DNA from: a virus
Taxonomy: Duplodnaviria > Heunggongvirae > Uroviricota > Caudoviricetes
DNA: 39,148 nucleotides
IMG/VR virus record: IMGVR_UViG_2534681836_000019
Direction: 5' to 3' (one strand)
How positions within the stretch are numbered: position 1 is the first letter of the stretch; every line of letters begins with the position of its first letter. Position numbers and translations under genes: made by a program. Positions 1 to 39,148 of the stretch are shown here, piece by piece. Under the pieces are notes generated by a model, which did no database searches, had not been told where the DNA came from, and was given only the letters and a program-made list of their open reading frames with translations.

Positions 1-2447
1 CGACCACTGGCGGGTTTGCCCTTAATCGTCCAGCCACGCATATCAGGGATCACGCCTGACGGATAAGCCGCTGCAAGTTTCGGGTATGCAGATTTGTCAA
101 AAGCCTGCCCCTGCATCAGGGCATAACCAGACGGAACGGTATCTGATGGCCACGGGATTGGTGCGCCAGGCGGATAAAACTGCTCTGATGGCGTATAGAG
201 TGAATAAACTGTACCGTCCGTTAACCCTTCCGGCTTATTAGCAGAATATGCTGGTGACGTATGAATAGTCACGCTGGCATTACTGGTATAATCCCATTGA
301 ATATTTACACCAGTCGCATAATTTCCGATTGCAACGTAAATATCGTAAGTATCACCAGATGTATTGACCCAGGCAAAATTTGTAAACCCTGTCGATGTGC
401 GCTGCCATAAAGCACCAGTAATCCCCTTCGGATTACCATTACCTGCACGCAAAACAAGTTCAGATATACCTGCCTGTTGAGGTGACCCCACGTTAAATCC
501 CGCGCCACCAATCAACGTAATTGAAACAACAGAACTCGCCTGTGGCATGGTTACCGTTGCTAATTTGAACCAACCAGCACCACCGCTGAATGACATTGTT
601 GTTGAGTTAAGCGTACCAATATCTTTCGGCGTCAGTGTTATATCCGCTGAAAGCGCCTTACCATTCACCTTACGGGCAGAAGGTACCCGACCATTCGCAT
701 TATCATTAGCTGCTTTCACTGCTTTCGGTGTCGCGGCAAGCGTTTCAGATGCGCTGTTGGTTGCACTACTGAGCTGGACAATTCCTTTTTGTGCTGTCGT
801 AGCGTCCTGAGCGGTATATTTCCCGTTAGCAAGGTCATAGGCTGCCTTTACCGACTTTGGCGTTGCCGCCAGCATTTCAGATGTGCTGTTGGTCGCGCTG
901 CTGAGCTGAACGATCCCTTTCTGTGCTGTCGTTGCATCCTGTGCGGTGTATTTCCCGTTAGCCAGGTCATACGCGGCCTTAACTGCTTTTGGCGTTGCCG
1001 CCAGTGACTCGGAAGTGCTGTTAGTCGCACTGCTGAGCTGTACTATCCCCTTTTTCGTCGTGCTCGCATCCTCAAGCGCCACGGCGGATGCAATATCCTC
1101 TGCCCGTTTAGCTGCTGTCTCGGCGCGCGTTGCCGCGGATTCCGCCGTACTTTTGCTCTGAGCTGCCGCCGTCGCACTGCCAGCTGCCTCTGTCGCCTTC
1201 GTGGATGCCGTCGTGGCGCTGCTCTTCGCTGCTGACGCCTGTCTGGTCGCCTCATCTTTTGAAGCAGACGCCGATGATGCCGATGACGCCGCCGAACTGG
1301 CTGACGATGCGGCAGCCGTTTTTGAGGATTCTGCGCTGGTTTCCGACGCTTTCGCGTTCGTTTCGGATGTCTTCGCTGCGGAAGCAGACCTCGCTGCTGC
1401 GCTGGCCTGTTCAGTGGCTTCGCCAGCCTTCGTTGTGGCTGTTGAAGCGGATGATGCGGCGCTTTCTGCCGATTTTCCGGCGGCGGTGGCACTGGCTGAG
1501 GCCTGCCCGGCACTTGTTGACGCGGCACTGGCAGACGACGCAGCCGCTGTTTTTGAGCCTGCCGCAGCTGAGGCGCTCTGTCCCGCTGCCGTCTCAGAAG
1601 ACTTAGCGTTCGTCTCGGACGTTTTTGCCGCCTTCGCGGAATTTCCTGCCGCCGTTGCCGAGGAAGCGGCACTACTGGCGCTTGATGATGCGTTCGTTTC
1701 TGATGATTTTGCCGCTTCTTTTGAAGCCGACGCATCCCGGGCTGAGGTGGCAGCTTCTGACGCTTTCGTGGTCGCGGTGGATGCAGAAGTGGCTGCTGAT
1801 TGTTGTGACGCTGCCGCATTCGTTTCTGACGTTTTCGCCGCAGCGGCACTGGTGGCCGCCGCGCTTTTTGAGGACTCTGCAGCGGCAGCACTTTTTTCCG
1901 CTTCAGTGGCCTTTGCTGATGCCGTTCCTGCGCTGGAAGACGCTGACTGAGCCGACGACGCGGCCTGTCCGGCTGACGTGCTGGCTGCGCGTGCTGAGCC
2001 TGCAGCATCAGTCGCATGGGTTGCCGCCTCACGGGCTGATGTGCTGGCATCGCTGGCTGACTTCTTCGCGGCTGCCGTGTTCTGTGCCACCGCGGACGCG
2101 TTACGCGCCACCTCTTCCACCATCAGTTCAAAACGGCGCAGTGCCTCAGGACGGGCATCATCCTCCGTCATGGCACCGAGAAAATCATTCAGCGTACCGG
2201 GTCGGGAATCTTCATACACGGTGATGGTCCCGGCATGTGACGGCGGGAAGCCTTCCACCAACAGAATAACGCTGTACTGACCGTACTCAACGTCCATGCT
2301 GTAACGCCCGGCTTCATCCGGATTTTCTGAGGCCAGCGTGTTCACCACCACCGTGGTACTGTTACGTTTTGCTTTCAGCTGGATTGTGCAGTTCTGTACC
2401 GGTTTTCCTGTGCCGTCTTTCAGTACACCTGAAATCTTTACTGCCAT
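1..2447 (-). CDS. stf: Side tail fiber protein Stf (partial; C-terminus lies beyond window start)
   Basis: Manual minus-strand translation from ATG at 2447 stays open to position 1; Ala/Ser/Thr-rich N-terminal region, then three tandem ~44-aa repeats ([15 protein letters not shown]..[28 protein letters not shown]), then tail-fibre-like C-terminal region; sits downstream of lom as in lambda. Not in ORF track because no stop in window. Confidence 0.8.
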
Positions 2448-2455
2448 ATTCACCC

Positions 2456-2486
2456 CACAAAAAAGCCCGCCTGAACCGGCGGGCTG
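2456..2486 (-). terminator. Rho-independent terminator downstream of lom
   Basis: GC hairpin agcccgcc-tgaa-ccggcgggct followed on the minus strand by a T-run, directly after the lom stop and before the stf start codon. Confidence 0.6.
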
Positions 2487-2511
2487 TCATAACACTGTGT
2501 TACCTGGCTAA

Positions 2512-3111
2512 TCAGAACTTATAACCGACACCCACGATGAAACCGTCAGTGCGCCAGTCGCCACTGCCGGAGCCTTCATAAGCAATATCAATGGCCACGG
2601 ATTCGGTCGGGTTAAACTGCACGCCAGCTCCCCACGCCAGAGAGGTGTCGCTGTGGCGACCGTCATCACTTCCGGTCAGCACATCGTGCGTTTTCCCCTT
2701 GTTGTCAGTTACGCGAAGATAATCCCCGGAGAAAGTCGACACACGGCTGTAAGCCACACCCGCCATCGCATACGCGCTGAACCATTCATTCACGCGCACA
2801 GACGGCCCCGCCATCACGCTGAACCAGCGGTTACGCACGGAATCTTCATGCCAGCGGGTATCGCTGTAACGGGTCAGCTGGCGATTCTTGTCTCCTGCAT
2901 AGCTGAATGACGTCACCATTCCCAGAGTGTCCGTAAACTCATAACGGTATTTCACGTTAATCCCGTTCAGATCATCACTGCCAGGGACGTTCGTCGAGGC
3001 ATGAAGATACCCCGCGCTCAGCGTGGACTGATGTTCAGACGCCCATGCAGGCGCACCGGATACGGCCAGACAAATGGCTGCGGACAAAATTGCTGCACAA
3101 ACTTTACGCAT
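2512..3111 (-). CDS. lom: Outer membrane protein Lom (Ail/Lom family)
   Basis: 199-aa ORF with signal peptide (MRKVCAAILSAAICLAVSGAPAWA) and C-terminal beta-barrel ending YKF; position between J and stf as in lambda. Confidence 0.9.
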   Translation of the reverse strand: MRKVCAAILSAAICLAVSGAPAWASEHQSTLSAGYLHASTNVPGSDDLNGINVKYRYEFTDTLGMVTSFSYAGDKNRQLTRYSDTRWHEDSVRNRWFSVMAGPSVRVNEWFSAYAMAGVAYSRVSTFSGDYLRVTDNKGKTHDVLTGSDDGRHSDTSLAWGAGVQFNPTESVAIDIAYEGSGSGDWRTDGFIVGVGYKF

Positions 3112-3181
3112 AATTACCTCTCGCTTTTCTGCAATAAAAAAGGCGTCATTCCTGACGCCCTTTATTGGGGTTATAAATATT

Positions 3182-6597
<3,416 letters not shown>

Positions 6598-6654
6598 TCA
6601 CGCTCCATAAACGACAAAACCGCCCGGAGGCGGTTTCACATAAAACGTTTTTCA

Positions 6655-7302
6655 TCAGCGACCAATCACCACAACCTGACCACCATCCCCTTCGTCTGCC
6701 GTGCTGATCTCCTGAGAGACCACCCGCGACCCCACGCGCATTTCACCGTACAGAACGGGCAGAACATTGCCCTGGGCAACCATGTTATCCAGTGAGGAGA
6801 AATAGGTGTTCTGTTTGCCGTTATCTGTACTTGCTGCCGTGGGCGTCCTGGCTTTCGGTGCCAGCATCTGCGCCACTCCGCCCAGGATCATACTGGCCCC
6901 TGCCGCATACATGCCCGATACAGCCGCGGCACCCAGCCAGCCCACAGGGTTCCACCATGCCACCGCAATCAGCGCCGACCCCAGCACCACCTGAAACACA
7001 CCGCCACTTTTAGCTCCCGCCAGACGCGGCACGATGTGGATCACGGCACCATTTGCCAGCGGCTCATTAAGACGGGCAGACAATTCGGTTTCACCTGCAT
7101 CACGCCCGGCAATGCGTACCTGGTACCAGCCGTCGCTCAGTTTCTGACGAAACGCCGGGATCTGCATGGCCAGCGCCCGGATGGCTTCGGACCCCGTTTT
7201 CACTCGAAGGTCGATGCGGCGGCCAAATCGTTGTAAATCCCCGTAAAGGCAGATGCGTGCCATGCCCGGTGACGCCAGAGGGAGTGTGTGCGTCGCTGCC
7301 AT
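6655..7302 (-). CDS. I: Tail assembly protein I
   Basis: 215-aa ORF MAATHTLPLASPGMARICLYGDLQRFGRR... ending QVVVIGR, recognised as lambda I; overlaps K as in lambda. Confidence 0.9.
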   Translation of the reverse strand: MAATHTLPLASPGMARICLYGDLQRFGRRIDLRVKTGSEAIRALAMQIPAFRQKLSDGWYQVRIAGRDAGETELSARLNEPLANGAVIHIVPRLAGAKSGGVFQVVLGSALIAVAWWNPVGWLGAAAVSGMYAAGASMILGGVAQMLAPKARTPTAASTDNGKQNTYFSSLDNMVAQGNVLPVLYGEMRVGSRVVSQEISTADEGDGGQVVVIGR

Positions 7303-7952
7303 TTGTCGGTGTACCTCTCTCGTTTGCTCAGTTGTTCAGGAATATGGTGCAGCAGCTCGCTGTCACCACAGTAAATGGCGGCATGATTCGGCACCGATGA
7401 ACCAAAACAGCACAGCAGCACATCGCCCGGCTGCGCCGCTGACAACGGCACCTGATACAGCCCTGTGGCCTCCAGATTATCCAGATAGAGATTCTGACCG
7501 TGACGCCACCAGTCATCCTCGCGATGAAAATCCGGCATCTCAATCCCCGCCAGATGGTAAGCATCCCGGAACAGCGTGTAACAGTCCGTCACCCCGTGCT
7601 CAAAGCGCCGCCCGGAAAGATGTGGCACACAGCGGAACTTGTGAATCGCCCCCCGGCAAACCAGCCACCACGGCAAATCACTCTGCACCTGCAGCCGCCG
7701 GTCGGTCTCACTCAGCCAGGGCAGACCACCGGGGTGGCTGTGGACCAGCGCCACAATCTCACCCTGCATCTCTGCCCGCAGCCAGTCCTCCGGCGACATC
7801 CGGAAATACTCCTCCGGCTCACCGGAGATATTCACGCAGGGAAAATATCTTTCCCCCTCCGGTGTTCTCACCACGAAGCCGCACGACTCCGCTGGCGCAC
7901 ATCGCCGGGCGTGCGCCAGAATCGCTGATTCTGTCTCTGTCATGGGATTCAC
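7200..7952 (-). CDS. K: Tail assembly protein K (MPN/JAB plus NlpC/P60-like domains)
   Basis: 250-aa ORF with HSHP metal-binding motif (VALVHSHPGG) and a Cys/His region; position between L and I. Confidence 0.85.
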   Translation of the reverse strand: MNPMTETESAILAHARRCAPAESCGFVVRTPEGERYFPCVNISGEPEEYFRMSPEDWLRAEMQGEIVALVHSHPGGLPWLSETDRRLQVQSDLPWWLVCRGAIHKFRCVPHLSGRRFEHGVTDCYTLFRDAYHLAGIEMPDFHREDDWWRHGQNLYLDNLEATGLYQVPLSAAQPGDVLLCCFGSSVPNHAAIYCGDSELLHHIPEQLSKRERYTDKWQRRTHSLWRHRAWHASAFTGIYNDLAAASTFE

Positions 7953-23193: not shown

Positions 23194-23366
23194 TCAGATT
23201 AAATTAATCTTGACATCATAGCTTTCAAGACCCGTCATTTTTTCCCGTGCGGTAAACTGAATACTGGTAACTTCTTTCCCGGTCTTTTTCTTAAGTTCAA
23301 TAATTTTTTTGTTATATATTCAGAAATATCTGCTTCTGCTTTTGTTTTTAAGTTTTCAATATTCAT
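23194..23366 (-). pseudogene. gnsB: gnsB-like small protein gene, reading frame broken by a 1-nt deficit in a homopolymer
   Basis: Frame 1 gives MNIENLKTKAEADISEYITKK then stops early; one extra A in the 7-T run at 23304-23310 (plus strand) would give ...IIELKKKTGKEVTSIQFTAREKMTGLESYDVKINLI*, close to GnsA/GnsB as recalled. Confidence 0.6.
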
Positions 23367-30442: not shown

Positions 30443-30598
30443 TTACTCCTCAGGTTCGTAAGCTGTGAAGACAGCGACCTCCGTCTGGCCGGTTCGGATT
30501 CGTACCTCGCAGAGGTCTTTCCTCGTTACCAGTGCCGTCACTATGACGGTTAAACAGATGACGATCAGGGCGATTAACATCGCCTTTTGCTGCTTCAT
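30443..30598 (-). CDS. hokD: Hok-family membrane toxin HokD (RelF)
   Basis: Manual translation: MKQQKAMLIALIVICLTVIVTALVTRKDLCEVRIRTGQTEVAVFTAYEPEE (51 aa); below ORF-track cut-off. Confidence 0.9.
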   Translation of the reverse strand: MKQQKAMLIALIVICLTVIVTALVTRKDLCEVRIRTGQTEVAVFTAYEPEE

Positions 30599-30669
30599 AG
30601 CCTGCTTCTCCTGTCAACGCAAAGCAGAAGTGTCACCTTCGGTGCGAAACAGAGATGTCATGCTTTGGT

Positions 30670-30957
30670 TCAGAGAATGCGTTTGACCGCCTCGCTATAT
30701 ACTTCCGAGCGTTCTCTTTTCCCAACAGAAATCACGAAAACGACAACTTTCTCGTCTATAACCTGGTATACAAGGCGATAGCCTGAAGACCGGAGCTTAA
30801 TCTTGTAACAATCAGGCATACCACGGAGCTTGTTTGCTTCAATCCGGGGTGACTCAAGTACTTCAACCAGCTTCTTTTTCAACTGTTCACGTACCGTCGA
30901 GCCCAGCTTTCGCCATTCCTTTAGTGCCCGCTCGTCAAAATCCAGAAAATACGCCAT
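30670..30957 (-). CDS. relE: mRNA interferase toxin RelE
   Basis: 95-aa ORF MAYFLDFDERALKEWRKLGSTVREQLKKKL..., recognised as E. coli RelE. Confidence 0.95.
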   Translation of the reverse strand: MAYFLDFDERALKEWRKLGSTVREQLKKKLVEVLESPRIEANKLRGMPDCYKIKLRSSGYRLVYQVIDEKVVVFVISVGKRERSEVYSEAVKRIL

Positions 30958-31196
30958 CAGAGTTCATCCAGCGTCACACGTACTGGCTTAGGATTACGAA
31001 GCCGTTCTTTCACTATCTCCACAAGTTCAGCATCTTCATCACTCAGGAGTGTCTGTTTGAACGGCAAGCGTTCATTGTCAGCGATATACTCGAGCATGAG
31101 ACGAAGCGCTTCAGAAGGAGTTACACCCATTTTTTCAAGCGCGGCGTAAGAACGCGCTTTAAGTTCATCGTCAATACGCAGGTTAATGCTACCCAT
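30957..31196 (-). CDS. relB: Antitoxin RelB
   Basis: 79-aa ORF MGSINLRIDDELKARSYAALEKMGVTPSEALRLM..., recognised as RelB; stop overlaps relE start. Confidence 0.95.
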   Translation of the reverse strand: MGSINLRIDDELKARSYAALEKMGVTPSEALRLMLEYIADNERLPFKQTLLSDEDAELVEIVKERLRNPKPVRVTLDEL

Positions 31197-31204
31197 GTCT
31201 TACA

Positions 31205-31265
31205 CCTCTTGTAATTACAAATGTCATTACAAGTATCGCACTACAACATGCTTAGGGCAAGTCAC
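31205..31265 (-). promoter_or_regulatory. relBE promoter/operator region (relO-like inverted repeats)
   Basis: Minus-strand CTTGTAATGACATTTGTAATTACAAG (31208-31233) contains inverted TTGTAAT repeats just upstream of the relB start. Confidence 0.6.
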
Positions 31266-31526
31266 GAAGGAAGTCAGAAAGTAGTCGTAAGAACGGTGAT
31301 CACTGTCCGCTTTGTGCCAGGAGCAGCCATTGCTAAGTCCATCCTGTATTGTGCAGGTCAGCTCGTTTTTAAAGAGTCCGGCCATCATCTTACTGGTACA
31401 GACACCATATACTTTGTGACGGTCAGGCTACATATGCACAACTCAACTTATTCATCTATTTTTTGCTTTAGCATGTCAGTGTTGCTTTCTCGTCGGCGGG
31501 TGAGCGGTGACCTGACCTGTCGATAA
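31221..31526 (+). CDS. Hypothetical ORF (101 aa) in the relB-flxA divergent intergenic region; may be non-coding
   Basis: ORF only; its ATG lies inside the rel operator; no RBS or motif support. Confidence 0.2.
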   Translation: MSLQVSHYNMLRASHEGSQKVVVRTVITVRFVPGAAIAKSILYCAGQLVFKESGHHLTGTDTIYFVTVRLHMHNSTYSSIFCFSMSVLLSRRRVSGDLTCR

Positions 31527-31680
31527 AGGAACGTAGCACGTTTTATGCAACACCCGCATGCGGCAGAAAATTATTGCCGAACGTTTACCCCTGTCAACAA
31601 GCTTTACTTTCTGAGGCGCGCCAGCCCGCGAGGAAAACAATCTGAACATCAAACAATTAATGACACAAGAAATACGATTA

Positions 31681-31707
31681 AAGATTTTTTTGTGCATGCC
31701 GATAGTG
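31681..31707 (+). promoter_or_regulatory. Sigma-28 (FliA)-type promoter for flxA
   Basis: TAAAGATT (31681-31688), 11-nt spacer, GCCGATAG (31700-31707), close to consensus TAAAGTTT-N11-GCCGATAA; about 20 nt upstream of the flxA start. Confidence 0.6.
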
Positions 31708-31728
31708 CTTTTTTAAAAGGAGAAATCT

Positions 31729-32060
31729 ATGTCTGTCACAATTCAGGGAAATACCTCAACCGTTATTTCAAACAACTCCGCCCCGGAAGGAACATCAGAA
31801 ATAGCCAAAATCACAAGACAAATTCAGGTGCTGACTGAAAAGCTTGGGAAAATCTCATCGGAAGAGGGGATGACGACACAGCAGAAAAAAGAATGGCTGC
31901 ATTGGTACAGAAGCAAATTGAAAGCCTCTGGGCTCAACTGGAGCAGTTGTTAAGGCAGCAGGCAGAGAAAAAGAATGAAGACGCGACAGTTCAGCCTGAT
32001 AAAAAAGAAGAGAAAAAAGACGATACAAATACCGCTGGCACCATTGATATTTACGTCTAA
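31729..32060 (+). pseudogene. flxA: flxA, reading frame interrupted by a 1-nt deficit in an A6 run (intact ORF is 31729-31953, 74 aa)
   Basis: Frame 1 MSVTIQGNTSTVISNN...TTQQKKE then shifts; the -1 frame continues MAALVQKQIESLWAQLEQLLRQQAEKKNEDATVQPDKKEEKKDDTNTAGTIDIYV* to 32060; one extra A at 31885-31890 restores a 110-aa product. Confidence 0.65.
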
Positions 32061-32075
32061 GTGACAGCCGTATTG

Positions 32076-32100
32076 TGGCCCTCATCGGGCCACTTTTCGC
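32076..32100 (+). terminator. Candidate rho-independent terminator downstream of flxA
   Basis: gtggccc-tcatc-gggccac hairpin followed by TTTTCGCC. Confidence 0.45.
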
Positions 32101-32444
32101 CATCAGCCTTTTCTTTAAAGACATATTATCTTTGTATCATTTCTGATAGTTAACATTACAAGATATAAGTAATGGACGCACTCCCAATTAGTCTATTTAA
32201 ATCGCCACGAGTTTAACTGACAACCCATGATCAATTATGAATTGCAACTATTTCTGTAGTCACTTTTGTGGGGACAGTCCACAAAACTGCCAACTTCCGC
32301 TTCTTGCTCTTAGCGGACATTAGCATAGGCTATTTGCCATAACGCCTCATTACGCGCACCGCCCAGACTGACTCAGCGCGTTTCTGGCATATCCCCGGTA
32401 AAACAAGTAACAAACCACCCGAAAATGAACACCAGAAACGCGAC

Positions 32445-33840
32445 TTAAGAATCTACCCTATGAATGGATATGCACTCAACCGAATCGATCTTGGTTTCAA
32501 TCTTTTTTATCGGGATCAGGCTTCTTTTTAGGTAACTTCGGGGGCTTAACTTGCTGATGACTTTGCGTTCGGCGCGTAAGCCAGGGATGGTCAGCTTTAG
32601 GTTTAACATAGTATTTTGAGCGTAAATCAATACGGGCATTATCCACTCGTTCATGGACACTCTTTTCATCATCCAGTGGTATAGGCTCCGGGCCATCAAC
32701 ATACTTTTCCCAGCCCAGCGCTTTCCCGTCATACAGAACGTTAATTTCACCGTCAAAGTTCTCGCATACAGTAACAACCGAATGCCTAAGTCGATATCCC
32801 CGGCCCTCACTGCGTACCTGAAACGCACTGCTTTTGTACTGGAAAGTGAGATTTTTAGACAGAACGCGCTTCGCCTGTAGGCTGAAGATATAACCCAGTT
32901 CCTCTTCAGAATGGTGCACATCAAGATGAGCATTATCAGTAGTACGAGGCGACGTAGCGAACCGGTTGTTATAGGCTTCAATAAAGGTCGGCAACCATGC
33001 ATTTGCTGTTTCAATATCACTGATATTCTGAAGCCGCATTTCTTTGACCAGCCTGTCCTGTAGTGTCTGATTGGCGCGCTCTACCCGCCCTTTTGCCTGC
33101 GGGCTGTTGGCATGGATTGGCTCGATGCCCAGTGTCTTTATCGCACGAGTGAACTGGGTACAGCTCACCTTCCCGCTCTGGGTTATTTACCCTGAATATA
33201 CTGTGTCTATCAGAGTAGAGAGCGAGCGGTACGCCATGATCATTAAGGTAACCCCGGAGGGTTTCCATGTAAGCCCGGGTTGTTTCAGCAGGCACAAAAC
33301 GCAACGCCATCAACGCACTGGTGGCATCATCAATGAAAACGATCAGTGTACATCTGGGGCCTCGATTTTCAAACCAGTCATGAGGTGAGCCATCAATCTG
33401 GATCAGTTCACCGTAAGATGGTCGTCGCATGCGGCGTTGATATATACGGGCAATTTTACGACGGCGTTCACGCCATACCCCCTCTTCTATCATCCACTTT
33501 CTGAGAGTTTCAACGGATAAAGATAAACCGTGTATCTCACGCAATTTTTCGCACGCAAACGTAGGTCCAAAATCAGCGTAACGGCCTTTGAGGAGTGAAA
33601 TTACTGTTGCTCTGAATTCAGTAGAAAAGGAATTATTAGGACGCTTTCCACGTCGGGGGGAAACCAGACCAGAAGGCCCTTCATTTCTATACCGTTGCAC
33701 CAGACGTTTAACCTGCCGAATAGAAATGCCAATGCGTGCCGCAGCTTGTTCCTGAGTAATATGTCGATTAATTGACTCCTGAATAATCTGAAGTCGGTGG
33801 AGTCCTTATGACTCATCGTAACAGTCTCTTTGATCATGAA
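32445..33840 (-). mobile_element. IS-like element remnant: HTH plus rve-type (DDE integrase core) transposase gene, split across at least two frames
   Basis: Minus-strand ORFs 33017-33700 (HTH-like IGISIRQVKRLVQRY, then IQIDGSPHDW...YSDRHSIF) and 32497-33168 (GRVERANQTLQD); frame break near 33150-33170 inside the catalytic core; N-terminal start also out of frame; ends not defined. Confidence 0.7.
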
Positions 33841-34206
33841 AAATCCCCCAGAGAATTGTCTGGGGACATTTTAGAATGGTTCAAAGGGGACATTACAGCT
33901 TGGTGTTAACACATCATAGCCCCTCCATTGCCTTCCGGCGGTTATCGGGCTACTATAATGTTGTCTAGGCATTACAGTGGAGCCCTTGGTTGATTGATAA
34001 AAAAATCTCCAGGGGCTTTCTGCTGTATACCGTCCACAAAACGCTTTCGGCATACAGCCTCAAGCGCCCGCAGCTATTCCAACGACTTTCGTATCTGCAA
34101 CAATCCTTTTATTCGCACGGCTAATTCCTCTGGTTAGCTCTTATCGCCTGCAAATAAATTTTTAACCTTTCCGTTTGATTTAAATTCCAGAAATGGAGAC
34201 TTTGTC

Positions 34207-35415
34207 ATGTCTTACAATCGACAGCCTGTCGCAGAAGATCCTATGCAGATATGGGGCGCTGTTGGTGTCCTTCTTATCCTGCTGCTATTCGTTATATGGT
34301 TATTCTTGCCGGAAGTGGTTTACGCCAGCTGCCTGATTCTTCATACCTTATGGGGACTGGTTGACTGGGGACCATTTCATAACTATGCAGCACCACGATA
34401 CAACCTGCTTGCCATGACCGGTAACAACGCCGCCAACATAAGCTATAGCCAGTGGGTTAACGTCATGGAGCAGACCATAGGTATTCTGTGGATGTACCTC
34501 TTACCTGTGACACTCTGGTGTTTGTGGGAGTGGTATCAACATCCGGGACAAAGTCGTTTCACCCGCAGACCAGTAGATATTACCCGACTGCCACACATCT
34601 TTGCTTCGTTGTCCCCTGCTATCGCCCCTGTACTGGCAGATGGTGATCCGGAAAAACTCTTTCATGGTGGCAAACGACCTGAACGGCGGGTTGCTCTCAC
34701 CCCGGAAGCATTTGTCGAGCAGCATACTCTCATCACCAATATGCAGCTCGATGTTGCAGCTGCAAGACGATGTTTCATGGCCCAGTTGGGTAAACCTTTA
34801 ACGTCCTGGAAAGACATGGCACCACATGAAAAAGCGCTCTTTGCCATATTTGGTCTTCAGTATTTCCTGGATGATCGTAAGGCAGCATTAAAGCTCATGG
34901 ATACACTGAACCTCTCATGCAGAATTAAAAGCAAACGGGACAGTGGGAAATTCTGTACCCCTGTTTATTCACTGGCCAAATCAGCTTTCCAGAGAGTGAT
35001 TAAAAGCAACGGAGCACAGCAATGGCTGAAACAACATCGCTACGTCCGCAGTGGGCTGGTCTGGCTGTATGCACATGACCTGCGGCTTACGCCACCCAAC
35101 TGGATTTGGCTGAAAGGCGTGGACAGGACGCTGTTTTATGCATTACACCGCGCCAATACCACGAAAGGATTTATTGAAGGCGCTGGCGTGGTGGCCGTTG
35201 CACGTGCAGAGGCCGAAGCCATGCGTTTTGGTCTTCCCTGCCCTGAACCCTGTGTTGATGAAGCGGTGGAAGGCTTACGGCGGGATATGCTCAGTCTCGG
35301 TCTTATCTGGGATGAACCACAACCAGATCGCGACCGGAAACGCCGCATCCTGACCAACTGGTCCCTCACCGACGACATCCTACCCCGCACACCTGCTACA
35401 GACAACGAATTCTGA
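34207..35415 (+). CDS. trbA: TrbA-like inner membrane protein (DotM/IcmP-like type IVB coupling complex component)
   Basis: 402-aa ORF with N-terminal transmembrane helices; first of three translationally coupled genes whose sizes (402/356/763 aa) match R64 trbABC as recalled. Confidence 0.6.
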   Translation: MSYNRQPVAEDPMQIWGAVGVLLILLLFVIWLFLPEVVYASCLILHTLWGLVDWGPFHNYAAPRYNLLAMTGNNAANISYSQWVNVMEQTIGILWMYLLPVTLWCLWEWYQHPGQSRFTRRPVDITRLPHIFASLSPAIAPVLADGDPEKLFHGGKRPERRVALTPEAFVEQHTLITNMQLDVAAARRCFMAQLGKPLTSWKDMAPHEKALFAIFGLQYFLDDRKAALKLMDTLNLSCRIKSKRDSGKFCTPVYSLAKSAFQRVIKSNGAQQWLKQHRYVRSGLVWLYAHDLRLTPPNWIWLKGVDRTLFYALHRANTTKGFIEGAGVVAVARAEAEAMRFGLPCPEPCVDEAVEGLRRDMLSLGLIWDEPQPDRDRKRRILTNWSLTDDILPRTPATDNEF

Positions 35416-35433
35416 TTATCCGGAGAACTGAAA

Positions 35434-36504
35434 ATGACAATCGAGTACTTTGCAACACGCATTGCAAAACATATTTCCGTGCAGGCAATCTGGCCGGATG
35501 GCAGGACAGAAATTATTGCCGTCCTTCCACGGGATGCCCTGTCAGGGCTGGTAACACGAAATAATCAACTGATTCATATAGCCTTTGACGCCATGGGCAC
35601 CCGTAACAGAGAAACCGTCCTGATTGATAAACAGGAGCATAACGCTGACCAGATACTTACAGCTATTGATTCCTGCCTGCGCCTTGAATATCTGATGGAA
35701 CGCCGCTTCAGCAGAACACCTTTGTTCCGTGGCATAATCGCCAGCGTTGTGCTGTTCGTAATGGCAACGATTGGCTTCTCTCTGTTCCGCTATGTTGATC
35801 GTGTATTCTGGGATGATACAACGCCTGAAGCAGTACAGACAGCAGGTGAGCCACGACTGCTTCCCCCTCACCTGAATCACACTGTGCCATTAAATGAAGG
35901 CATTCAACTCCCGGTTCCCCCGAAAAAAGACGTCCAGGTACCGGAGAAAACAATCACAAGCAAAAATCCGGAAGCCGCAGCTGCGCGACATAATCTGGCT
36001 ACTGTTCTGAAGCGGAACGCCGATCGGGGCATGTTTACCATCAACCTGTCATCCGGTCATGAACGAACCCTGTTCGCATTTCTCGATCCTGCCTGTCCTA
36101 ACTGCAGACTTCTGGAGCCGGCCTTAAAACGCCTGGCCAGCGACTTCAATGTCGTTATCTACCCGGTTTCAGTTATTGGTGGAGAGGAATCCACCGACCG
36201 TGTGGCACCACTGCTGTGTGAAAAAGATGCTCAGAAACGTGCTGCCAGCTGGCACCGACTGTATTCCGCAGATAACGGAATGATGACGCCATCAGAAGAA
36301 ACAACGCCTGCAGATGAAACATGCCTGAAAGCAGCCAGAGCTGCGATTGATGTTAACAATGTCGCCTTCCGTAAGTTCGGATTTGCCGGTACCCCATGGG
36401 TGCTGTCCGACACGGGCTGGCATCTGCCTACTGGAATTCTGCAGGAAACTGGCACGCTTAATTTATTCCTGAAAACCACCGACAGCGAGTCTGGCCATGA
36501 GTGA
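35434..36504 (+). CDS. trbB: TrbB-like thioredoxin-fold protein (DsbC-like thiol:disulfide interchange)
   Basis: 356-aa ORF with central transmembrane segment and CxxC active-site motif (FLDPACPNC); stop overlaps trbC start. Confidence 0.65.
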   Translation: MTIEYFATRIAKHISVQAIWPDGRTEIIAVLPRDALSGLVTRNNQLIHIAFDAMGTRNRETVLIDKQEHNADQILTAIDSCLRLEYLMERRFSRTPLFRGIIASVVLFVMATIGFSLFRYVDRVFWDDTTPEAVQTAGEPRLLPPHLNHTVPLNEGIQLPVPPKKDVQVPEKTITSKNPEAAAARHNLATVLKRNADRGMFTINLSSGHERTLFAFLDPACPNCRLLEPALKRLASDFNVVIYPVSVIGGEESTDRVAPLLCEKDAQKRAASWHRLYSADNGMMTPSEETTPADETCLKAARAAIDVNNVAFRKFGFAGTPWVLSDTGWHLPTGILQETGTLNLFLKTTDSESGHE

Positions 36505-38788
36505 ACATCGCGTTAACCCCGAGCTTTTACACCGTACAGCCTGGGGAAATCCTGTCTGGAATGCACTCCAGAGTCTCAATATCTATGGCTTTTACCTGGT
36601 GGCAAGTCTTGTGGCCAGTTTTATCTGGCCACTTGCATTACCGGCATGTCTGTTGTTCACACTGATAACGATGCTGGTATTTAGTCTGCAGCGATGGCGC
36701 TGCCCTCTTCGTATGCCCATGACGCTGGAATGTGCTGACCCGTCACAGGACAGAATGATTAAAAGAAGTCTTTTCAGCTTCTGGCCAACCCTGTTCCAGT
36801 ATGAGGTCATTCTGGAATCACCGGCCAGCGGCATATTCTATGTTGGTTATCAACGCGTCAGGGATATTGGCAGGGAGTTATGGCTGAGTATGGACGATCT
36901 GACCCGCCATATAATGTTTTTCGCCACCACCGGTGGCGGTAAAACGGAAACCATCTTTGCCTGGGCGATTAACCCACTTTGCTGGGCAAGAGGATTCACC
37001 CTTGTCGATGGCAAGGCACAGAATGATACGGCAAGAACGATCTGGTATCTGGCCAGACGCTTTGGACGTGAAGACGATGTGGAAGTCATTAACTTCATGA
37101 ACGGAGGAAAATCCCGCAGTGAAATCATTCTGAGTGGTGAAAAAACGCGTCCTCAGTCAAATACCTGGAATCCCTTCTGTTACAGCACTGAGGCATTCAC
37201 AGCGGAGACAATGCAGTCAATGCTGCCCCAGAACGTCCAGGGGGGCGAGTGGCAGTCCCGGGCCATTGCCATGAATAAGGCACTGGTATTTGGTACTAAA
37301 TTCTGGTGTGTGCGCGAAGGCAAAACAATGTCGCTGCAGATGCTCCGTGAACATATGACTCTCGAAGGGATGGCCAAACTTTACTGTCGTGGCCTCGATG
37401 ATCAGTGGCCGGAAGAAGCTATCGCACCGTTACGTAACTACCTTCAGGACGTTCCCGGTTTCGACCTGTCGCTGGTCAGGACACCATCAGCCTGGACGGA
37501 AGAACCCAGAAAACAACATGCTTATCTCTCCGGGCAGTTTTCTGAAACTTTCAGCACATTCACGGAAGCATTCGGGGATATTTTTGCTGAAGATTCCGGT
37601 GATATCGATATCCGTGACAGCATTCACAGCGACAGGATTCTGATGGTAATGATCCCCGCTCTGGATACATCAGCGCATACAACGTCTGCTCTTGGACGAA
37701 TGTTTATCACCCAGAAAAGTATGATTCTCGCCCGTGATTTGGGCTACCGCCTCGAAGGAACTGATTCCGATGCACTGGAAGTCAAAAAATATAAGGGGCG
37801 TTTCCCTTATCTGTGTTTCCTTGATGAAGTGGGGGCATACTATACGGACCGTATTGCTGTGGAAGCCACTCAGGTGCGTTCACTGGATTTTGCTCTGATT
37901 TTGATGGCACAGGACCAGGAACGTATAGAAGGACAGACAACAGCCACGAATACTGCAACACTGATGCAGAACACGGGGACAAAATTTGCCGGCAGGATTG
38001 TCAGCGAGGGTAGTACAGCCAGAACGCTGAAAAGCGCCGCCGGTGAAGAAGCCAGGGCGAGAATGAACAACCTACAGCGTCAGGACGGCATATTTGGTGA
38101 ATCATGGATTGACAGCCCACAAATCAGCATCCTAATGGAAAGCAAGATAAATGTTCAGGAGTTGATTGAACTTCATCCTGGCGAGTTCTTTTCTATTTTC
38201 CGGGGAGAAACCGTACCATCAGCATCATTCTTCATCCCTGACGATGAGAAAAGCTGCAGCAGCGATCCCGTGGTTATAAACAGGTATATCAGCGTGGATG
38301 CGCCACGCCTGGACCGTCTCCGCCGTCTTGTTCCCCGTACTACTCAACGTCGAATACCGTCACCGGAAAATGTCAGTGCCATCATTGGCGTCCTGACTGC
38401 AAAACCCTCCAGAAAAAGACGAAAAATTCGCACAGAGCCGCACACGATCGTGGATACATTCCAGCAACGCATTGCAGGACGTCAGGCGGCTATGGCAATG
38501 CTGGAAGAGTACGACACGGATATCAACGCACGTGAAAGTGCCTTGTGGGAAACAGCGGTGAATACGCTAAAAACGACCACACGGGAAGATCGACGAATTC
38601 GCTATATCACGCTGAACAGACCAGAACTACCTGAAACAAAAGAGGAAAATCAGATATCAGTGAGAGCAGAAAGAGCAGGTATAAACCTGTTAACGCTTCC
38701 ACAGGACAATAACCACCCGACAGGGCGTCCTGTAAACGGGTTTCATCATAAAAAAACCAACCGTCCGGACTGGGACGGAATGTACTGA
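36497..38788 (+). CDS. trbC: TrbC-like type IV coupling protein ATPase (DotL/IcmO, VirD4/TraG family)
   Basis: 763-aa ORF; N-terminal transmembrane helices, Walker A FFATTGGGKTE, Walker B-like LCFLDEVG. Confidence 0.7.
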   Translation: MSEHRVNPELLHRTAWGNPVWNALQSLNIYGFYLVASLVASFIWPLALPACLLFTLITMLVFSLQRWRCPLRMPMTLECADPSQDRMIKRSLFSFWPTLFQYEVILESPASGIFYVGYQRVRDIGRELWLSMDDLTRHIMFFATTGGGKTETIFAWAINPLCWARGFTLVDGKAQNDTARTIWYLARRFGREDDVEVINFMNGGKSRSEIILSGEKTRPQSNTWNPFCYSTEAFTAETMQSMLPQNVQGGEWQSRAIAMNKALVFGTKFWCVREGKTMSLQMLREHMTLEGMAKLYCRGLDDQWPEEAIAPLRNYLQDVPGFDLSLVRTPSAWTEEPRKQHAYLSGQFSETFSTFTEAFGDIFAEDSGDIDIRDSIHSDRILMVMIPALDTSAHTTSALGRMFITQKSMILARDLGYRLEGTDSDALEVKKYKGRFPYLCFLDEVGAYYTDRIAVEATQVRSLDFALILMAQDQERIEGQTTATNTATLMQNTGTKFAGRIVSEGSTARTLKSAAGEEARARMNNLQRQDGIFGESWIDSPQISILMESKINVQELIELHPGEFFSIFRGETVPSASFFIPDDEKSCSSDPVVINRYISVDAPRLDRLRRLVPRTTQRRIPSPENVSAIIGVLTAKPSRKRRKIRTEPHTIVDTFQQRIAGRQAAMAMLEEYDTDINARESALWETAVNTLKTTTREDRRIRYITLNRPELPETKEENQISVRAERAGINLLTLPQDNNHPTGRPVNGFHHKKTNRPDWDGMY

Positions 38789-38858
38789 ACAGTGGCCGCG
38801 CCGGATTCGAACAAACGCAACTATTGCACAGTTCTAAACCTGACTGCCCCTTAGCCAG

Positions 38859-39148
38859 TAGACTGGCCCCCTGAATCTCCAGACAACCAGTATCACTTAT
38901 TTAAGTGATAGTCTTAATACTAGTTTTTAGACTAGTCATTGGAGAGCAGATGATTGATGTCTTAGGACCGGAGAAACGCAGACGGCGTACCACACAGGAA
39001 AAGATCGCAATTGTTCAGCAGAGCTTTGAACCAGGGATGACGGTCTCCCTCGTTGCCCGGCAACATGGTGTAGCAGCCAGCCAGTTATTTCTCTGGCGTA
39101 AGCAATACCAGGAAGGAAGTCTTACTGCTGTCGCCGCCGGAGAACAGG
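38859..39148 (+). mobile_element. IS2 left end (partial; continues beyond window end)
   Basis: TAGACTGGCCCCCTGAATCTCCAGACAACC... matches the IS2 terminal inverted repeat region as recalled, followed by the insC start. Confidence 0.85.
38950..39148 (+). CDS. insC: IS2 transposase OrfA (InsC), partial
   Basis: [66 protein letters not shown], truncated by window end. Confidence 0.85.

Follow-up and report, generated by a model that had tools for sequence, protein, structure and literature searches.

A probable relBE-carrying transposon of the IS1202 family at the join of Qin-like prophage and IncI1 plasmid DNA

The IMG/VR virus record IMGVR_UViG_2534681836_000019, a stretch of 39,148 nucleotides that is analysed here at its full length and is called the window, contains on its minus strand a transposase gene (33816 to 32497) of the IS1202 family (ISNCY, ISEsa1 type). 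A sequence-only reading had taken this gene for a degenerate relic at a prophage boundary. Comparison with related loci shows that it lies in a unit of 3300 bp (30612-33911), which is delimited by its presence in an IncI1 plasmid (pDEC9B-1, our locus L001), its absence from another IncI1 plasmid with an empty site (L003), and its position in two chromosomes (L002 and L073). From end to end, the unit consists of the transposase-proximal terminal inverted repeat (IRL), the transposase gene (tnp), a terminator-like hairpin, flxA, ydfV, relB, relE, and the distal terminal inverted repeat (IRR). In this report, we describe the locus, compare it with its relatives, and propose how the unit may have reached its sites.

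The window as a whole combines DNA of different origin: the late half of a Qin-like lambdoid prophage (1-30611), IncI1 plasmid backbone (33912-38858), and the start of IS2 (38859-39148). Chromosomal Qin-like prophages match positions 1606-33939, with the late genes, the lysis genes, Q, ydfU, rem, and hokD followed by the element, whereas IncI1 plasmids match up to 38858, from 30608 if they bear the element and from 33912 if they have the backbone only. Immediately to the left of the unit lies the toxin gene hokD (30443-30598, minus strand; Pfam HOK_GEF, 83 bits). To its right are the pnd/sok leader and then trbA, trbB, and trbC. This leader is the complete sok/hok-leader RNA of the IncI1 pnd locus (33912-34069, minus strand; Rfam RF01794, 133.5 bits, model positions 1-157 of 157), and it ends exactly at the element junction without an adjacent open reading frame (ORF) for the toxin PndA, because the element and then chromosomal DNA come after the leader.

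The existence of an rve/DDE-type transposase gene on the minus strand, as the sequence-only reading proposed, is confirmed by its translation and by profile matches, but the lower coordinate of 32445 given there belongs to a spurious overlapping ORF, and the gene stops at 32497. When its frame is corrected, the ORF encodes 439 amino acids from 33816, or 446 amino acids from an alternative in-frame ATG at 33837. The intact transposase of pDEC9B-1 matches the NCBIfam model NF033594 (ISNCY_2) with 463 bits over model positions 1-365 of 368, the family cut-off being 250 bits, and the Pfam domains HTH_28, HTH_32, and rve_3 are found in the corrected product. Judging from motifs, the catalytic triad is probably D142, D203, and E246. 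The corrected protein is identical to the pDEC9B-1 ORF and 444/446 (99.6%) identical to WP_004196353.1, a protein of 446 amino acids that PGAP names a complete ISEsa1-family transposase and that occurs on Klebsiella and Enterobacter plasmids. Its length and its N-terminal helix-turn-helix domains agree with the IS1202 family, in which DDE transposases of about 394-507 amino acids are the rule.

As written in the window, the gene is split into three ORF pieces by exactly two frame breaks, which agrees with the earlier count of at least two. The translation begins with MSHK in frame 0, continues in a second frame up to NPEREGEL (the helix-turn-helix and the first two catalytic aspartates), and regains frame 0 for TQFTRAIK, GRVERANQ, and the terminal PDPDKKD before the stop codon. 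In other words, the -1 and +1 shifts cancel and only residues ~5-219 are out of frame; the start and GRVERANQ frames, which were earlier said to differ from each other as well as from that of the core, are identical. The first break (33803-33804, codon 5) changes the coding strand from AAGGAACTCC in relatives to AAGGACTCC in the window; on the plus strand one T is missing after 33803, giving GAGTCC in place of GAGTTCC. The second (33160, about codon 220) changes GAGCTGACCC in relatives to GAGCTGTACCC in the window through an extra A on the plus strand (GGGTACAGC in the window, GGGTCAGC in relatives), and it falls between the putative catalytic residues D203 and E246. The alignment with relatives agrees with the earlier remark that the break near 33150-33170 is outside any long homopolymer. 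A gene with these two breaks cannot yield an active enzyme. Programmed frameshifting was considered as an explanation and ruled out, because there is one continuous ORF in all relatives.

The word “degenerate”, however, does not fit. The 1651 bases of 32300-33950 are those of pDEC9B-1 apart from the two indels, and the ORF is uninterrupted in that plasmid, so that two single-base corrections restore an intact gene, and defined inverted repeats are present as well (see below). In a megablast search of the same interval against 5426 complete E. coli genomes, it was found in 1455 and covered to at least 80% in 788, and these 788 copies are mostly at least 99% identical to it. When 60-mers across each indel were searched, about 792 E. 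coli records were found, all one base off, and none shares either indel. The copy in the window is therefore an intact-type gene with two lesions unique to the window and not a decayed remnant. By itself this gene is unremarkable: its transposase family is known, and its two single-base lesions may be errors.

It should be mentioned that the E. coli copies are annotated as “IS1202-like element ISEsa1 family transposase” and, after it, “YdfW”; the gene that the K-12 annotation calls ydfW corresponds to the last 49 codons (32497-32646). PGAP splits the intact ORF of 439/446 amino acids in E. coli into a transposase that is “incomplete, missing C-terminus” and a 49-residue “protein YdfW”; examples are the intact ORFs at 6135-7454 of pDEC9B-1, 5102-6442 of L002, and 33553-34893 of L073. 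A legacy K-12 gene name thus appears to split an intact gene, and the combination of a “partial transposase” and “YdfW” can be flagged as a recurrent annotation artefact.

The sequence-only reading saw no clear terminal inverted repeats. They are present 3.3 kb apart, beyond the stretch it examined, and an inverted-repeat search confined to 31900-34250 likewise gave nothing convincing, because the partner repeat is at 30612. IRL (33886-33911, minus strand) reads TGTTAACACCAAGCTGTAATGTCCCC inward from 33911, and homology with all related loci begins exactly there. IRR (30612-30637, plus strand) reads TGTCAACGCAAAGCAGAAGTGTCACC inward from 30612; it matches IRL at 19 of 26 positions, which makes it the best IRL-like match in the whole element, and it is kept as the distal end of elements whose cargo differs as well as between hokD and relE in K-12. 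The tips of the element are TGTTAAC... and ...GTTGACA (TGT...ACA). The distal end was set at 30612 by exact repeat matching, since BLAST extents overshoot it by 19 bp (to 30593), the hok-type flanks being alike. Each end also has a subterminal copy of the inner 19 bp: at the IRL end this copy (33862-33880, minus strand) matches at 15/19 positions and lies 5 bp inside IRL, and at the IRR end (30644-30662, plus strand) it matches at 13/19 and lies 6 bp inside IRR, so that the offsets are 31 and 32, respectively. Matches of at least 13/19 to this 19-bp sequence number only 12 in 78 kb (both strands of the window).

These features are those of the IS1202 family, for which the tips TGT...ACA, a repeat length of about 26 bp, and a second, subterminal site have been described (PMC10132070); imperfect terminal repeats of ~24-29 bp with outer bases 5'-TGT and ACA-3' are found here at 19/26, together with the subterminal copies at both ends. 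The size is that of neither a simple insertion sequence (IS) of the family (1.3-1.75 kb) nor a transporter IS (tIS, up to ~2.5 kb), because the unit has 3300 bp and its relatives have 4.3-7.3 kb; it is better called a transposon or tIS than a simple IS.

The remaining contents of the unit are cargo. The antitoxin gene relB (30957-31196, minus strand; Pfam RelB, 112 bits) is followed by the toxin gene relE (30670-30957, minus strand; Pfam ParE_toxin, 51 bits), which reads outward over IRR toward hokD. A RelB gene followed by a gene for a toxin of the RelE/ParE fold is the arrangement of a RelBE type II toxin-antitoxin system, and both genes are 100% identical in nucleotides to the chromosomal relB and relE of L073. 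The other cargo genes are ydfV (31221-31526, plus strand), which has no match in Pfam, and flxA (31729-32060, plus strand), which is frameshifted in the window by one A fewer in the A run at 31892. Between the cargo and tnp lies a hairpin with a 7-bp stem (32296-32318; on the tnp strand, GTCCGCT...AGCGGAC), which may be a terminator; with it the conserved transposase module ends, just short of the place where cargos diverge.

A search for direct repeats around the element, which the sequence-only reading had recommended, was fruitful in the relatives, where the unit is flanked by duplications of 13-16 bp, mostly 15-16 bp. In pDEC9B-1, TGGAGGGGCTATGATG is found on both sides of the unit, and it occurs once in the empty IncI1 site of L003. 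The duplicated sequence is GGAGAAGCAGGCTAT in chromosomes of E. coli (L002) and Shigella (L014), and over 30 prophage contigs of IMG/VR likewise have it on both sides. A scan for relatives with one genome per species returned 69 loci, and here the duplications are GGAGAAGAAGGCCAT (L005, L006, L009, and L010), GGAGAAGAAGCCATG (L008 and L020), GATATGCTGACAAA (14 bp, L011), and GATGTTAGCCATG (13 bp, L022), as well as three of the 15-16 bp class at non-hok sites, namely CCAGGCGGTACAGTAT (L007), TACCAAAACAAGCCCC (L015), and CATTAAGCTGCAAAT (L035). Perfect or near-perfect duplications of 15-16 bp also flank all six Hahella copies examined, and the cargo-free relatives in Chromatiales have 15-16 bp too. 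At every locus the duplication has the local type of sequence, so that it cannot be put down to exchange among homologous hok loci, and we interpret the duplications, from these comparisons, as probable footprints of transposition. Among the duplication classes of the IS1202 family (3-5, 16-17, and 27-28 bp in different subgroups), 15-16 bp is close to the 16-17 bp class. The 28-bp overlap between the chromosomal and plasmid homologies was also considered as an IS1202-style duplication of 27-28 bp, and it was rejected, the overlap being the similarity of two hok ribosome-binding regions.

The sites themselves have much in common. Six insertions with both ends read (hokD, pndA, L005, L008, L011, and L022) lie at the translation-initiation region of a hok gene, and the six ORFs that start in or just after the IRR-side duplication all match Pfam HOK_GEF. 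At four further loci, where only IRL was reached (L004, L013, L036, and L151/152), the hok-leader signature ...TAGCCTCTT...GCCG.AAGGCAAGGAG is found upstream. A full-length match to the Rfam sok family (RF01794) ends exactly at IRL in the window (the leader described above), in L011 (104 bits), and in L014 (104 bits); a weak match in L005 (32.5 bits, below the family cut-off) also ends at IRL. Both hallmarks of a hok site, a Hok/Gef ORF and a sok/mok leader RNA, are present, with the leader match missing at the typical E. coli chromosome L002, where Rfam gave no sok match upstream of IRL. The orientation is invariant, with IRL beside the sok/hok leader and relE-IRR beside the hok ORF, and the duplication starts immediately behind GGCA(A/T), which at hok sites is a motif of the leader and which precedes it at the three non-hok sites as well. 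In the window, the hokD-type copy of the 15-bp duplication (30597-30611, minus strand; GGAGAAGCAGGCTAT on the hok strand) covers the hokD ribosome-binding site and start codon. In Shigella (L014) and in many viral contigs, a complete sokD leader lies 3.3 kb from hokD, across the element, and it appears that the insertion parted hokD from its own leader and put it downstream of relBE.

Taking these observations together, we conclude with good confidence that the gene is the transposase of a 3300-bp transposon of the IS1202 family (ISEsa1 type) at 30612-33911, and that the copy in the window is the product of an exchange between prophage and IncI1 DNA, as discussed below. As for the mechanism, the DDE transposase (putative residues D142, D203, and E246) would bind the terminal repeats and cut the target with a stagger of 15-16 bp. 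The resulting duplication would take in the ribosome-binding site and ATG of hok. For this reason, the toxin ORF would keep its translation signals while being cut off from sok/mok control, and it would become the third gene behind relBE, as in the relBEF operon. More broadly, we lean, on somewhat better than even grounds, to the view that ISEsa1-type elements are not 1.6-kb insertion sequences lacking a duplication but transposons of the IS1202 family that carry cargo and, always in the same orientation, home to hok ribosome-binding sites with duplications of 15-16 bp, and that they created relB-relE-hokD and moved relBE onto IncI1 plasmids. No prior description of a hok-targeting relBE transposon was found in the searchable literature. 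Such homing would be a second kind of site-specific targeting, to hok translation-initiation regions, in a family known for dif sites.

Several observations weigh against these views. The evidence for transposition is all comparative. The element is nearly always single-copy in E. coli, where it is inherited with the prophage, so that recent activity rests mainly on the pair of chromosomal and IncI1 copies, which are one single-nucleotide polymorphism (SNP) apart. The duplications are shorter than the usual class in L011 (14 bp) and L022 (13 bp). In the IMG/VR contig L106 (~1344-4645), the flanks of a 3301-bp copy at a non-hokD site share only CGCCTT (6 bp); this copy may be a recombinant of two copies or may have suffered an adjacent deletion. 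Most E. coli chromosomes keep only about 30 bp of hok leader upstream of IRL, abutting a DUF977 gene. Lastly, the distal ends of L004, L013, L016-18, L021, and L151/152 were not found within the fetched flanks.

The Qin prophage of K-12 holds the same DNA in a more eroded form. In MG1655, IRR and the duplication lie within the 71-bp spacer between relE and hokD; the element is kept up to the equivalent of window position 32681, where a 2.8-kb deletion begins that took most of tnp, IRL, and neighbouring early genes. The relB-relE-hokD (“relBEF”) operon of K-12 would then be the IRR-side junction of the transposon, and ydfW (“intK”) is the C-terminus of its transposase, made up of the last 49 codons. 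It has been stated that relBE was integrated into hokD by horizontal transfer, the vehicle not being named (PMC6379469, PMC5120126), and papers on IncI1 plasmids list relBE as an addiction module without comment. The transposon offers a concrete vehicle and mechanism for the entry of relBE into both the Qin prophage and IncI1 plasmids. It would also account for a hokD that lacks a sok/mok control region, because the insertion separated them, and that is co-transcribed with relBE.

We now return to the window, where the two flanks of the element disagree: the left one is of the hokD type, and the right one (33912-33927, minus strand; TGGAGGGGCTATGATG on the hok strand) is the pnd-type copy of the IncI1 duplication. 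In ordinary chromosomes, the element lies inside a Qin-like prophage between hokD and the early genes DUF977/ydaT/dicC. In the window, these early genes are replaced by IncI1 DNA, and none of the complete E. coli genomes in the collection has this prophage/IncI1 arrangement. A second, nearly identical 3.3-kb copy lies beside trbA in IncI1 plasmids and provides 3.3 kb of shared homology. The mismatched flanks therefore indicate that the copy in the window is the product of a homologous exchange between a Qin-like prophage copy and an IncI1 copy. The two differ at one informative SNP (33478), where the window carries the plasmid allele, so that the crossover can be placed only to the left of this position. 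The idea of a recombination point in the sequence-only reading holds insofar as prophage DNA stops at the element, but the mechanism would be homology between two copies and not deletion by the transposase. Nor did the element remove the prophage early region, as had been thought likely, since the junction beyond IRL is the exact IncI1 junction that already exists in plasmids.

This exchange may have been a real integration of the plasmid, or it may have been made by an assembler that joined contigs through the 3.3-kb repeat; the sequence alone fits both cases, and nothing in it tells them apart. In the latter case, no integration took place and the indels within the repeat are consensus errors from mixed reads, an account that we regard as evenly balanced in its chances. 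It gains from the absence of the junction from complete E. coli genomes, from the end of the window in IS2, another repeat, and from the pattern of differences. Over 30608-38858 (8.25 kb), the window differs from pDEC9B-1 by two substitutions and four genuine one-base indels (31892 in flxA, 33160, 33803, and 34112), and inside the element by no substitution and three frame-breaking indels. Homopolymer indels elsewhere in the window also suggest a noisy assembly. On the other hand, it would be nothing unusual biologically for a conjugative plasmid to integrate by homology, in an Hfr-like manner, through a 3.3-kb element that both replicons share, and the majority of the 41 prophage genes that were checked are intact. 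In either case, the example shows how a 3.3-kb transposon present on both replicons can bring together the DNA of a prophage and a conjugative plasmid, or lead an assembler to do so in error.

With regard to the homopolymers, one-base length changes in T/A runs, relative to close relatives, break the tail host-specificity gene J (at 3572, affecting the C-terminal ~130 residues) and gnsB (at 23304), and, flxA aside, the remaining homopolymer length changes of the window, several in number, lie between genes. The changes at 31892, 3572, and 23304 look like homopolymer sequencing error. An indel-to-substitution ratio above one, together with this homopolymer bias, favours sequencing or consensus error, especially in a 3.3-kb stretch that is present on two replicons, and we hold with moderate confidence that the two indels in tnp are sequencing or assembly errors. 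This is weakened by the fact that neither of them lies in a long homopolymer. For the same reason, it is plausible, although we are less inclined to it, that the frame breaks are real and recent inactivating mutations and that the copy in the window is a true pseudogene: there is no obvious selection on single-copy transposases in cryptic prophages, and other copies of the gene are truncated or bear IS insertions. On the contrary, neither indel is present in the roughly 790 other copies, and three frame-breaking indels with no substitution in 3.3 kb would be an unusual natural pattern.

A third question is how far the mobile unit extends. In ISfinder, where it belongs to the IS1202 group of ISNCY, ISEsa1 is recorded as an element of 1609 bp with inverted repeats of 15/22 and a transposase of 439 amino acids, with “no TSD detected” for its target duplication; Harmer and Hall (2023) placed it in the IS1202 family, in a subgroup of its own with ISCARN112 and without duplication (PMC10132070). 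The ORF here also has 439 amino acids, and the conserved tnp module has 1610 bp as against the recorded 1609. The functional distal end, however, lies beyond relBE (at 3.3 kb, and at 4.3-7.3 kb in other loci), and the duplications, mostly of 15-16 bp, flank this larger unit and not ISEsa1 as defined, an element that is known here by its description and not by its sequence. That record (PMC10132070) and the mutual homology of hok loci, between which exchange is conceivable, would speak for a mobile unit that is only the 1.6-kb ISEsa1, with flxA, ydfV, and relBE as ordinary neighbours and the repeats as results of recombination at hok loci. We consider this quite unlikely. Around 1609 bp there is no sign of an inverted repeat, the best IRL-like match there being 14/26 as against 19/26 at 3300 bp, and the 1610-bp point is merely where cargos diverge after the hairpin. 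In addition, the duplications are of the local type, plasmid or chromosomal, on both sides, unlike the products of recombination between hok loci; at the non-hok loci L007, L015, and L035, complete units with their cargo lie between duplications of 15-16 bp; IRR bears the subterminal repeat of the family; and the cargo-free relatives (L030, L031, and Hahella) end in the same IRR-like sequence directly after tnp.

The 1610-bp divergence point thus coincides with the recorded end of ISEsa1, and the recorded right end is probably this divergence point, which would explain the missing duplication. A point on the other side is that the equation of the 1609 bp with the tnp module rests on the match in length and on the 439-residue ORF, and the presumed identity with the type copy also on PGAP naming. 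If it is right, the delimitation of a catalogued element is corrected, in the ISEsa1 subgroup, which had been the sole branch of the IS1202 family reported to lack a target duplication.

Finally, we consider it highly unlikely that the gene is what a decaying IS left behind where its transposase deleted or rearranged the prophage early region. It is true that there are two frame breaks, that prophage homology ends at 33911 with the early genes absent from the window, and that a deletion does start inside the transposase gene in K-12. However, the interval 32300-33950 matches an intact-ORF copy except for two private 1-bp indels, and the IncI1 junction beyond IRL pre-exists in plasmids with its own target duplication, so that exchange between two copies, rather than a deletion, accounts for the loss of synteny.

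Within the IS1202 family, the transposon described here can be compared with several groups (PMC10132070). With the ISAjo2/ISAba32-type elements, which target dif/pdif sites, it shares the transposase family, the TGT...ACA tips, imperfect repeats of about 26 bp, the subterminal second binding site, and a strict preference for site and orientation. Those elements are cargo-free, have 1.5 kb, make 5-bp duplications, and insert 5 bp from the XerC site, whereas the present one has cargo, duplications of 15-16 bp, and hok ribosome-binding sites as targets. Duplications of similar length (16-17 bp) are known for ISTde1, ISCARN, ISShha1, and ISVbsp4 (PMC10132070, Table 7), in contrast to the published absence of duplication in the ISEsa1/ISCARN112 subgroup, for which 15-16 bp are found here in Hahella, Chromatiales, and Enterobacteriaceae copies. 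The tIS of the family (ISKpn21, ISKpn65, and ISRel10) also bear additional ORFs between their transposase gene and distal end (PMC10132070). They carry a single ORF of unknown function, while the cargo here consists of several exchangeable genes (flxA-ydfV; cytochrome b561 and a cation-diffusion-facilitator (CDF) transporter; LysR and TauE; or ncr nickel resistance), and its last part, next to IRR, is usually a toxin-antitoxin module.

This exchange of cargo is seen in many Enterobacteriaceae, where the homology with the window falls into two blocks around 1-4 kb of unrelated cargo, in units of 4.3-7.3 kb. The first block is the 1610-bp tnp module, which starts exactly at IRL and has about 91% identity to the window; the second is a 731-bp relBE block that ends at IRR and the hok-type flank, with about 99% identity, including other genera. 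Both blocks (q501-2110 and q3088-3800 of the query) are common to L005-L011, L015, L020, and L022. The cargo of L015 comprises cytochrome b561 and a CDF transporter, and L005, L007, and L020 have the same genes plus nested insertions of the IS110 or IS30 type. The cargo includes LysR, TauE, and a thioesterase in L019, membrane proteins and LysR in L022, and ncrABCY nickel resistance and more in L151 and L152; in L035, it consists of an acetyltransferase and a GNAT/RHH toxin-antitoxin pair that replaces relBE.

Three arrangements at hok sites deserve mention. In Leclercia (L019, 2612-8912), two members of the family, 86% and 72% identical to the tnp module of the window, lie head to tail at one hok site, the second IRL coming directly after the IRR of the first element and 10 bp of hok ribosome-binding-site sequence, which suggests repeated hits on the same target. 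In the IMG/VR contigs L104 and L112, IRR abuts hokD sequence from the middle of the gene (CTGCGAGGTACGAATC...), a deletion from the exact end of the element having taken the 5' half of the gene. In L018 (~5890-5906), the DNA upstream of IRL reads as a reverse-complemented hok ribosome-binding site with its ATG (CATGGCCTTCTTCTCC), a sequence that normally lies beside IRR; this points to an inversion, or to exchange between two copies of opposite orientation.

Cargo-free relatives occur outside the Enterobacteriaceae. In these (L030, L031, and the Hahella copies), an IRR-like end directly follows tnp, and the relatives in Chromatiales metagenome-assembled genomes have 1364 and 1437 bp. The Hahella relative has 62% amino acid identity and a length of 1449 bp, and at least 10 copies are present in the single genome of Hahella sp. 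SMD15-11 (L023-L034 and L048), so that this branch of the family is clearly active as a simple IS. Two of these copies are in tandem, 1466 bp apart (L024).

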